A DNA stretch of 7,918 bases, taken from Verrucomicrobia bacterium UBA3869. GTDB taxonomy: Bacteria; Verrucomicrobiota; Verrucomicrobiia; Opitutales; UBA9783. Under the pieces are notes generated by a model that saw only the letters and a list, made by a program, of their open reading frames with translations, was not told the origin of the DNA and ran no database searches. A program made the position numbers and the translations under genes. Below, in pieces: positions 4,942 through 6,594 of this stretch (its first letter is position 1; each line of letters opens with the position of its first letter). The DNA lies in assembly GCA_002392285.1 (NCBI GenBank), contig DGGR01000015.1, positions 1-7,918 on the forward strand, read 5' to 3'.

Positions 4942-6594
4942 TTAAATCTTTTTGTTAGCATTGTTTCCGGTGCCGAAGTACCATAAATATTGACCTAAGT
5001 AAGAAGGGCTATCGTTACCCCCGGTTGAGGCGAACAAGTCTTTAAATAGAGCTTCACTGTTGTCCTTTAGGTCTGCCATCAAGTCCTTTAGGTCGTTTAA
5101 AGCGCTTTGTTGGGCTTCGGTCAATGCATGTTTTTCCGGATTGAAATAGGTGCCCATCTGGAAACTGCCTTCCATTTCTCCAGCATTATATAGGGCTTCT
5201 GTAAGGGTTTGTAGTTGAGCCTTAACGGTATCCTTGGCTTGTTCGGCCGCATTGGTCCCCTTTTGTTGGAGGGTCTTGATGTCGGATACTAATTTGTTTA
5301 CATCAAAGTTTTTGACGATCGTTTCATTGAAAACACGTTCTGTAAGCTTCTGTCCAGCGCCCTTTAGTATATTGGTAAACATATCCTTTATTTCTTTGGG
5401 CGTGTCTGCACTATTAAAGACCTCCGCAAATAAGTTGGGTTGGGTAGATTTGAGATCCGTATAGAATTTTATTAAATTGTTGATGTTGGTTTTAGCTCCC
5501 TCAGACAAGTTATTTAGATTTAAATAGTTATTAATCAAACCTGAAGAATCTTCGTTGATTTTATTTGCCAAATCTTGAATCCCTTTAAAGAATTCGGTCT
5601 TATTCCCGGCAGAGAGGTTTTCGGCCAGAGTGGTGAATACTTTGGGATCAATCTTATCCCCGAGGGCATTCTTCATGATCTTGGTTCCAGTATCAACCAA
5701 GGCATTTTTGATGGTTTCCAGCGGATTTTCTTGCAGTTTGCCTGACTTAAACGCGTTAGTCAGTTGCTCCTCAAGCTCGTCGAGCTTAAGCATCTTACCT
5801 GCTTCGCTCTTCATTATCTTATCCTTTAAGTCTCCTAATTTTTCTTGTAATTGATTCTTCAAATCGGTTAATTTAGTGAGAGCCTTACTAAGGACTCCGG
5901 GGTTCTTGGGATCGGAAGGCATAGCTTCCTCCTTGATCTTTAATAGATCATTTCCAAAGTTCTTCAGAGGTGTTAAAAAATTCTTGTCATCTGAAAATAA
6001 TTTCTTAAGATCGTTGGGGCTTTTGACTTTATCAAATGCCTTGGTAACGGCATTAAACGCTTTTGTTCCATCGTCCCATAACTTTTGCAAATTTTTATCG
6101 CTTTTGATGACCTCTTCCGCAATCTTTTTGCTTCCGTCGATCATTTTCTCTCCTAGTTCTTTAATGCTGTTAGGACCTTGACCACTCATGCCGCTTGCTA
6201 TGGCAGTAACTGTTGCTTGTGTGAGTAATTGGGTAGCATTTCCGTCCCCTAAGAATTTATAAACCAGAATCCCACCGACTACAAGAGCAGCTCCTGCAAT
6301 CAATAAGGGCAAGACTGGTGTGAGGGCAGCTGCAAATCCTACGGCAGCAATTGTGGTGGCAATTGAGTAAATAGCCATACCGACAGCGGAAGCGCCTAAA
6401 AGGGTTGCTAAGGCTCCGACGCCTTTAGCAATTTTTTTGAAGCCCGATTTAATGCTGGCCCAAAGACCCTTTTCGGTATTTTGGACTTCTTGCTTCTCTT
6501 GATTGGCTTCTGTTTTATTAACGTCGGTAGCAGATATATTTTGCTGATTGACGTCGGTGTTGTTAATGGGATTAAGATTATTCTCGAGTGCCAT
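4942..6594 (-). CDS. Hypothetical 550-aa membrane/coiled-coil protein; candidate T3S substrate (Inc-like or translocator-like)
   Basis: A long uninterrupted ORF. It has a polar Asn/Thr/Gln-rich N-terminus (MALENNLNPINNTDVNQQNISATDVN). Residues 58-112 (GVGALATLLGASAVGMAIYSIATTIAAVGFAAALTPVLPLLIAGAALVVGGILVY) carry no charged residue. About 430 aa of K/N/D/L/E-rich, helix-prone sequence follows. It sits directly upstream of a class II T3S chaperone. I recognise no conserved family motif. Confidence 0.85.
   Translation of the reverse strand: MALENNLNPINNTDVNQQNISATDVNKTEANQEKQEVQNTEKGLWASIKSGFKKIAKGVGALATLLGASAVGMAIYSIATTIAAVGFAAALTPVLPLLIAGAALVVGGILVYKFLGDGNATQLLTQATVTAIASGMSGQGPNSIKELGEKMIDGSKKIAEEVIKSDKNLQKLWDDGTKAFNAVTKAFDKVKSPNDLKKLFSDDKNFLTPLKNFGNDLLKIKEEAMPSDPKNPGVLSKALTKLTDLKNQLQEKLGDLKDKIMKSEAGKMLKLDELEEQLTNAFKSGKLQENPLETIKNALVDTGTKIMKNALGDKIDPKVFTTLAENLSAGNKTEFFKGIQDLANKINEDSSGLINNYLNLNNLSEGAKTNINNLIKFYTDLKSTQPNLFAEVFNSADTPKEIKDMFTNILKGAGQKLTERVFNETIVKNFDVNKLVSDIKTLQQKGTNAAEQAKDTVKAQLQTLTEALYNAGEMEGSFQMGTYFNPEKHALTEAQQSALNDLKDLMADLKDNSEALFKDLFASTGGNDSPSYLGQYLWYFGTGNNANKKI

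Follow-up and report, generated by a model that had tools for sequence, protein, structure and literature searches.

Chaperones of the class II fold, the classical partners of hydrophobic translocators in type III secretion systems (T3SS), can also serve effectors. SscB of Salmonella has this fold and chaperones the transmembrane (TM) effectors SseF and SseG, binding their chaperone-binding domain together with the first TM segment and so preventing mis-insertion into the bacterial membrane. Another group of secreted membrane proteins, the Inc proteins, is defined by its phylum, the Chlamydiae, and by its place in the inclusion membrane. In structural terms Inc proteins carry a bilobed hydrophobic domain of 40-60 residues, with two TM helices of 15-32 residues and a loop of fewer than 30 residues that is uncharged and rich in Pro, Gly, Asn, Ser or Thr (Dehoux 2011). 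Here we analyze a 550-residue orphan protein encoded at positions 4942-6594 of the minus strand of contig DGGR01000015.1 (assembly GCA_002392285.1, Verrucomicrobia bacterium UBA3869), of which a stretch of 7,918 nucleotides, hereafter the window, was studied. The protein comprises a polar N-terminus, a basic amphipathic helix, a TM hairpin and a 435-residue domain predicted to be all-helical. We tentatively read it, with a probability of about 0.45, as a TM substrate of a non-flagellar T3SS, most likely an effector that ends in a host-cell membrane.

By analogy, SscB of Salmonella with SseF and SseG comes nearest in mechanism. As in that system, the gene of the hairpin protein is linked to the gene of a chaperone with the class II (tetratricopeptide repeat, TPR) fold, here in 10 of 10 loci; the TM hydrophobicity is intermediate, and in one locus (L040) two paralogous presumed substrates surround one chaperone. 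Unlike SseF and SseG, to which it has no sequence similarity, the protein lacks PxI/LxxP and is twice as long, with a helical domain of 435 residues. The arrangement also differs, with the chaperone gene downstream, a 41-codon open reading frame (ORF) in between, a sigma-28 gene in first position and a reduced-genome Verrucomicrobium as host. An earlier reading of the window from its letters alone (the sequence-only reading) had offered effector or translocator as an either/or, which the SscB precedent makes less unusual than was supposed. It had also pointed to a class II chaperone neighbour, which matches to TIGR02552 and to structures in the PDB bear out; the service to translocators that it attached to such chaperones is not exclusive, as SscB serves SseF and SseG.

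The structural features of Inc proteins such as IncA are found in all members of the family, with a 55-residue block and a turn (T92-P93-V-L-P96) in the window protein, and are accompanied by a polar leader at the N-terminus, a C-terminal domain that is long and helical, and a lineage-specific, rapidly diverging sequence. The host, however, belongs to the Opitutales, there is no match to the IncA family of Pfam, and one or two genes were seen instead of a large repertoire. The known chaperones of Inc proteins resemble class I. The sequence-only reading therefore had to be corrected in its chlamydial frame: a chlamydial origin was rejected, as the locus belongs to a reduced-genome member of the Opitutales (Verrucomicrobiota, family UBA9783), and the 550-residue protein is thus no Inc if that term is strictly reserved for one phylum. 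The organism is still a relative of the chlamydiae within the Planctomycetes-Verrucomicrobia-Chlamydiae group.

With the SctE translocators (YopB, PopB, AopB, IpaB, CopB) the protein shares the linkage to a class II chaperone, a helical sequence in the range of 400-600 residues, a TM hairpin and insertion energies nearly those of AopB; it differs in having no detectable homology to them, a hairpin at residues 58-112 and not in the center, and neither a minor-translocator partner nor a tip-protein gene in the operon. The combination of a sigma-28 factor, a candidate secretion substrate and a chaperone in one operon recalls FliA-FlgM, IpgC-MxiE and SicA-InvF, here in a bacterium without flagella, and this resemblance is one of context only. 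The 550-residue protein has no FlgM domain, is predicted to anchor in a membrane and is ten times larger than FlgM, and unlike IpgC-MxiE and SicA-InvF the operon has no AraC-type regulator. Membrane substrates that have a hairpin and pair with a TPR chaperone are already known as a kind; new are the occurrence in a Verrucomicrobial host, the operon led by sigma-28, the gene order that includes the 41-codon ORF and the extreme divergence.

The reading frame of 550 codons and its uncharged block, which had been placed at residues 58-112, hold exactly, the block mapping to positions 6259-6423 (minus strand, as are all segments of the protein given below). The short motifs listed in the sequence-only reading were found where it had put them: SIATT at residues 77-81, TPVLP at 92-96, TDVN at 13-16 and 23-26, KNAL twice, DLKDLMADLKD, and the pair TKAFNAV/TKAFDKV at 177-190, whose two copies do differ in their codons. 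No tandem repeats were found in the gene at the DNA level.

Residues 1-42 (6469-6594) form a variable segment rich in Asn, Thr, Gln and Pro and are a candidate type III secretion signal. They contain no Sec-type signal, have a predicted local distance difference test (pLDDT) score below 30 and no secondary structure in the AlphaFold model, and show a proportion of nonsynonymous differences (pN) of 0.13-0.24. Ser, Thr, Asn, Gln or Pro account for 15-18 of the first 30 residues in the full-length members (15 in the window protein) and for 13 in a shorter paralogue, P0014. Residues 43-57 (GLWASIKSGFKKIAK; 6424-6468) follow as a basic amphipathic helix that abuts the hairpin and may be the chaperone-binding segment; all members carry a net charge of +2 to +5 there, W45, S47, K49, F52, K54, I55 and K57 are invariant in the family alignment A1, and the AlphaFold model places a helix at 44-59. 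The bilobed hydrophobic block itself (residues 58-112) is devoid of Asp, Glu, Lys, Arg and His over 55 residues (Ala 25%, Leu 16%, Gly 15%, Val 13%, Ile 9%) and is predicted to hold two TM helices linked by an uncharged Thr-Pro-x-x-Pro turn (92-96). Every member, even where overall identity has dropped to 24-33%, has an uncharged block of 55-61 residues, and no other part of the protein is better conserved (pN of 0.046-0.055 for sliding windows inside the block). Since both its length and its conservation are kept in all homologues, the block is not a chance feature.

The models predict residues 113-550 to be all helical, with the addition of one short beta-hairpin, and conserved and variable segments alternate along the protein. 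A hypervariable patch lies right after the hairpin (residues ~105-195; 6010-6282), where the ratio of nonsynonymous to synonymous differences (pN/pS) reaches 1.2-2.0. The most conserved soluble core (residues 285-330, NPLETIKNALVDTGTKI...VF...N; 5605-5742; pN/pS ~0.4) is shared with the paralogue P0014 and has invariant columns in alignments A1 and A3. Beyond it lie a second hypervariable patch (residues 344-388; 5431-5565; pN/pS 1.1-1.6) and a conserved aromatic C-terminal tail (residues 532-550, YLGQYLWYFGTGNNANKKI; 4945-5001). In this tail (YLGQYLWYFGTGN) L533, G534, Q535, Y536, L537, Y539, F540, G541 and G543 are invariant in A1; it is shortened to YLLQYLKEI in the family member P0013 and missing in P0014. 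Taken as a whole, the architecture, with a polar disordered N-terminus, a basic helix and an uncharged hairpin with a Pro/Thr turn, fits a type III-secreted membrane protein, as had been proposed.

Orphan status was borne out by homology searches. The protein has no match in Pfam and NCBIfam at E <= 0.1, and when seven members were compared with Pfam at E <= 1, neither IncA nor a translocator or FlgM family was among the best 25 of the 32 families listed. Homology to CopB, YopB, IpaB, AopB or IncA was found neither in Pfam nor by profile search. Two AlphaFold models, of the full length (mean pLDDT 53) and of residues 117-550 (mean pLDDT 68), were compared with the PDB by Foldseek and gave best E values of 0.009-0.14, all to unrelated helical repeats; phmmer and profile searches of PDB sequences returned nothing beyond noise. 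A match to HtrII (E 0.003, 19 bits, accuracy 0.69) was judged compositional, being driven by Ala and Gly. A word-indexed search of 5.8 billion proteins recovered nine homologues, and an exhaustive HMMER search of 1.84 billion cluster representatives with the family profile recovered four real clusters at 50% identity; P0015, a Gly/Ala-rich protein of 399 residues reached by the profile search at E 1e-3, was judged spurious. No relatives of the protein were found by a family scan of the GTDB representative genome contigs or by two scans of JGI metagenome contigs. A scan of the same GTDB contigs with Ffh returned distant homologues only (<=49% identity). The GC differences that had been spot-checked by hand are real (41.3% in the 550-codon gene, 52% in its Gly/Ala-rich block, 43.1% in the window), but the full count traces them to amino-acid content, so that they give no sign of foreign origin, and horizontal transfer was rejected as their explanation.

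The presumed partner, a protein of 207 residues with an 85-residue N-terminal extension (4161-4784, minus strand), is encoded two genes downstream, as had been noted, with the 41-codon ORF (4802-4927) intervening. Its matches identify it as a class II chaperone of type III secretion, of the SycD/LcrH type. It aligns with positions 15-135 of the 136 of TIGR02552 at E 1.5e-17 and 63.6 bits, which is below the cutoff of 104.8 bits, and its sole matches among PDB sequences are PcrH (2e-6), SycD (2e-5), AcrH (6e-4), the chlamydial Scc3 and IpgC. A tblastn search of 72,556 plasmids gave 27 weak matches, and the 25 listed all fall on SycD/LcrH-family, TPR or uncharacterized genes. Among relatives the chaperone retains 79-99% identity, with a ratio of nonsynonymous to synonymous substitution rates (omega) of 0.10-0.16, that is, under purifying selection. 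The longest of the plasmid matches, covering 88% of the chaperone including its N-terminal extension, is to a SycD/LcrH gene of Bradyrhizobium on plasmid pN03G-1 (L047, 6097-9419); on that plasmid unannotated proteins of 331, 366 and 206 residues with hydrophobic blocks follow the SycD/LcrH gene, and a secretin gene adjoins.

The hydrophobicity of the hairpin was evaluated with the Hessa predictor of the apparent free energy of membrane insertion (dGapp), in which, as a sanity check, a 19-residue Ala segment reached zero at about four Leu. Four members of the family gave values of -0.67 to +0.02 kcal/mol for segments of 12-17 residues and of -0.7 to -1.95 kcal/mol for segments of 18-35 residues. 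For the same two lengths the secreted translocators AopB and AopD gave +0.04 and -1.72, and +0.41 and +0.73 kcal/mol, respectively. Membrane proteins of the same genomes (PgpA, pseudopilin, VTT, MraY and PQ-loop proteins) ranged from -1.26 to -2.52 and from -0.86 to -2.92 kcal/mol, and AscV, an inner-membrane export-gate protein, gave -3.02 and -2.67 kcal/mol. Published values are -1.5 to 0.5 for TM substrates of type III secretion and about -2 for substrates of the signal recognition particle (SRP) (Krampen et al.). The hairpin thus lies in the niche of secreted membrane proteins, close to AopB and unlike inner-membrane proteins, a result that is supportive and, given the small control set, not decisive.

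Rates of evolution were assessed in six close genomes, in which Ffh is ~98% identical and the synonymous distance (dS) is 0.04-0.10. The 550-codon gene outpaces its neighbors about 15-fold: its mean nonsynonymous distance (dN) is 0.14 against 0.006-0.015 for Ffh, PgpA, a metallo-beta-lactamase-fold (MBL) protein, sigma-28 and a leucine-rich repeat (LRR) protein, and its pairwise omega is 0.41-1.02 against 0.04-0.16 for the same five. Identity to the window falls from 75% in locus L038 to 45% in L001 and 33% in L040 for this protein, while sigma-28 remains at 98%, 88% and 91% and the chaperone at 99%, 79% and 80% in the same loci. All copies are intact ORFs of 536-555 codons, so the gene is not decaying. 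In sliding windows pN/pS is 0.2-0.5 in the hairpin and at residues 285-330 and 419-463, and 1.2-2.0 across ~105-195 and 344-388, suggesting diversifying selection on the variable patches. Fisher tests of pN > pS on single pairs were not significant for the patch at 105-195 (p 0.08-0.26); for that at 344-388 one pair reached p=0.035 and the others were not significant. Fast and patchy evolution of this kind is the pattern of host-exposed proteins. As a separate observation, the chaperone gene and the 41-codon ORF (4161-4927, minus strand), compared with loci L042-L044, reach dS values of 0.79 and 2.5 for certain pairs of otherwise near-identical genomes whose neighboring genes are at 0.04-0.2, and dS varies 6-fold along the 550-codon gene, suggesting recombination between divergent alleles.

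The family UBA9783 comprises genomes below 1 Mb from herbivore guts, without flagella and most biosynthetic pathways, and is listed elsewhere among the lineages of protist endosymbionts. Non-flagellar T3SS are known in Verrucomicrobia. Relatives with the same gene order include MAG372 from horse gut (JAKSVZ010000001.1, locus L040, family member P0013), assigned to Verrucomicrobiota, Opitutales, f__UBA9783 and g__UBA3869, with 0.77 Mb, 75.5% completeness and 43.6% GC. Its sigma-28, chaperone and LRR protein share 91%, 80% and 85% identity with their counterparts in the window. Directly after its chaperone gene MAG372 carries the 400-residue paralogue P0014 (L040, 12518-13720, plus strand), which has the same leader, hairpin and core as the 550-residue family and misses the C-terminal third, so that the chaperone gene is flanked by two related genes for hairpin proteins. 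The window and L001 have only ~170 nucleotides at the place of P0014.

On the effector reading, the downstream class II-fold chaperone would bind the basic helix (residues 43-57) and the adjacent hairpin inside the bacterium, keeping the protein soluble and away from the SRP/Sec route, an avoidance that the moderate hydrophobicity of the hairpin would also aid. The disordered Asn/Thr/Gln-rich N-terminus would act as the export signal. Following delivery, the 55-residue hairpin would insert into a host-derived membrane with both termini, including the 435-residue helical domain, facing the host cytosol, where the hypervariable patches may contact host factors. What argues for this reading is the conjunction of a chaperone held under purifying selection in a genome of ~1 Mb, its linkage to one or two hairpin proteins whose leader is polar and disordered, the basic amphipathic helix adjoining a hairpin of intermediate hydrophobicity, very fast and patchy sequence evolution, and the reduced-genome lifestyle of UBA9783, a family listed with protist endosymbionts.

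Several points weigh against it. No T3SS apparatus gene and no further hairpin proteins of this type were found in ~100 kb of related DNA (~10-kb flanks per locus); the sole paper describing UBA9783 is silent on T3SS and deems a free-living life possible, and our search of the literature found no report of a T3SS in this family. The [PV]xLxxP anchor motif is absent from all nine homologues of A1, searched by regular expression, in agreement with the sequence-only reading, which had not found PxLxxP in the window protein. The chaperone gene lies downstream of its presumed substrate and is upstream in sscB-sseF, and a tight coupling to sigma-28 is not a feature of known effectors. As to the supporting measurements, the dGapp parameters were checked solely with Leu/Ala controls, AopB, AopD and AscV; positive selection is not statistically established, and the omega near 1 could partly reflect relaxed constraint.

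If the protein were instead a divergent translocator, a pore-forming analogue of SctE/SctB served by the class II chaperone, its hairpin would form the translocon in the host membrane. Adjacency to a class II chaperone is the classical translocator setting, the size (400-550 residues) and helical content would suit, the hydrophobicity of the hairpin is near-identical to that of AopB, and the two paralogues around the chaperone gene of L040 recall a translocator pair. The P/VxLxxP motif is not universal, being likewise missing in translocators of Chlamydia, Salmonella pathogenicity island 2 and E. coli. We nevertheless consider this unlikely, as the A3 profile gave negative hmmsearch scores against AopB and AopD, no translocator family is among the Pfam matches listed and the PDB offers no structural match. 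The hairpin starts at residue 58 without a polar loop, whereas the single long uncharged stretch of AopB is central (163-210); most loci have one copy, the second being a dispensable paralogue and not a distinct minor translocator; and the turnover is extremely fast for an essential part of a machine. A resident inner-membrane protein that is not secreted, a hairpin with both termini in the cytoplasm whose helical domain regulates sigma-28 (as an anti-sigma factor or partner-switch component) or tethers the chaperone or the secretion machinery, would account for the conserved 29-nucleotide spacing from the sigma-28 stop codon, the typical position of an anti-sigma gene, and for the basic flank on the N-terminal side of the hairpin (+2 to +5), which fits the positive-inside rule. 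The weak profile match to the TM1-TM2-HAMP part of HtrII (E 0.003) would point the same way, were it not driven by composition. Such a role is doubtful in view of a sigma-28 that is 88-98% conserved facing a protein at 33-75% identity with omega up to 1, a disparity hard to reconcile with a dedicated binding partner. Neither FlgM nor another anti-sigma domain is among the Pfam and NCBIfam matches, the hydrophobicity at 12-17 residues is below that of all membrane proteins of the same genomes tested, and the paralogue follows a chaperone gene and not a sigma gene.

It is rather improbable that the protein acts at the membrane or surface outside type III secretion, for instance as a scaffold of the envelope, as a pore former resembling a holin or a toxin, or as a surface protein with antigenic variation that another pathway exports, with the adjacency to the chaperone incidental. 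A surface antigen could likewise evolve in this fast and patchy manner, and there are faint holin-like and tape-measure-like matches (P0015, E 1e-3; Phage_holin_3_6, E 0.036), but these are compositional and far under the family thresholds. The protein has no signal peptide, lipobox or beta-barrel, and the order with the chaperone and the 41-codon ORF does not vary even at 33% identity, in contrast to the rearranging outer flanks. As an extension of the secreted-substrate reading, the cassette could, though very improbably, be a switch that couples sigma-28 to secretion in a bacterium without flagella, an injectisome counterpart of the flagellar FlgM checkpoint. In such a switch the hairpin protein, and perhaps the 41-residue protein too, would restrain the class II chaperone, a role we regard as highly speculative; export of the substrate on host contact would then alter sigma-28 activity through the freed chaperone or the loss of the substrate, which is an equally long shot. 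Were it true, UBA9783 would be symbionts or parasites of gut protists armed with a T3SS, with an Inc-like effector evolved independently of the chlamydiae.

For UBA9783, a widespread uncultured gut lineage whose lifestyle is debated between free-living scavenger and protist endosymbiont, the effector reading, if true, would make a conserved chaperone operon with a fast-diversifying candidate effector that inserts into membranes direct genomic evidence of an intimate antagonistic or symbiotic interaction with eukaryotes. It would also extend hairpin effectors of the Inc/SseF kind to Verrucomicrobia and support the view, itself recent, that translocators are not the only clients of class II-fold chaperones. 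The linkage to sigma-28 in the absence of flagella provides a testable handle on the regulation of such systems.

The cassette runs from sigma-28 through the 550-codon gene, the 41-codon ORF and the chaperone to the LRR gene, an order conserved in all 10 loci; from sigma-28 to ffh it is shared by all loci, and the outer flanks vary. Its first gene encodes a FliA/WhiG-type sigma-28 of 252 residues (6624-7382, minus strand), matching TIGR02479 (FliA_WhiG) at E 6e-54 and 183.1 bits, slightly below the curated cutoff of 189.6 bits. This factor is 88-98% identical among relatives, with omega of 0.05-0.12, and its retention in a lineage reported to be without flagella parallels the situation in the Chlamydiae. 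From its stop codon to the start codon of the 550-codon gene there are 29 nucleotides in the window and 29-32 in all loci, and the two genes are presumably co-transcribed. A tRNA-Pro (GGG) gene lies upstream (7683-7759, minus strand), and the intergenic gap of ~300 nucleotides before the sigma-28 gene holds no recognizable sigma-28 or strong sigma-70 promoter: matches to the sigma-28 consensus GCCGATAA occurred at chance level, none usefully placed, and scans for sigma-70 promoters and terminators were at background level only.

The 41-codon ORF (4802-4927, minus strand), preceded by a GGAGG ribosome-binding site, has the same length in L001 (11625-11750), L040 (11697-11822) and L038, with ~50% identity and a conserved C-terminal motif, L-D-[FY]-D-T-D-P, and it was gene-called in L002, L003, L038, L039 and L042-L045. 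A family search gave no match to its product, and a PxMxxP present in the window copy is not kept in L001 or L040. The product could be a small secreted regulator or co-chaperone. The last gene of the cassette on this strand encodes an LRR protein of 294 residues (3104-3988, minus strand; LRR_4, E 1e-22), with internalin-like matches and weak matches to type III LRR effectors. Its N-terminus (MMTYRAHFFAILSLAYLIQLPRIQA) resembles a Sec-type signal peptide, and its identity of 85-95% across relatives contrasts with that of the 550-residue protein.

The opposite strand carries ffh, pgpA, the MBL gene and a pseudopilin gene. The pseudopilin ORF (2637-3149, plus strand, 170 codons) overlaps the 3' end of the MBL gene, and at its own 3' end it shares 46 nucleotides with the convergent LRR gene. 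In relatives the pseudopilin is called at 136 residues, corresponding to a start at 2739 and an N-methylation motif (MNRAKGFTLVELV), and 2739 is probably the true start. Paralogous genes of ~280-320 codons lie at either end of the cassette, next to the sigma gene and next to ffh, at 7878-7918 (minus strand) in the window, 7974-8933 in L002, 8006-8869 in L039, 7954-8919 in L001, and 7881-8723 and 16537-17373 in L038. Their products have a signal peptide, carry ...G[VI]GR[ST]F at the C-terminus and look like outer-membrane beta-barrels. Past these flanking paralogues the DNA differs among near-identical genomes, suggesting that rearrangement has taken place at them.

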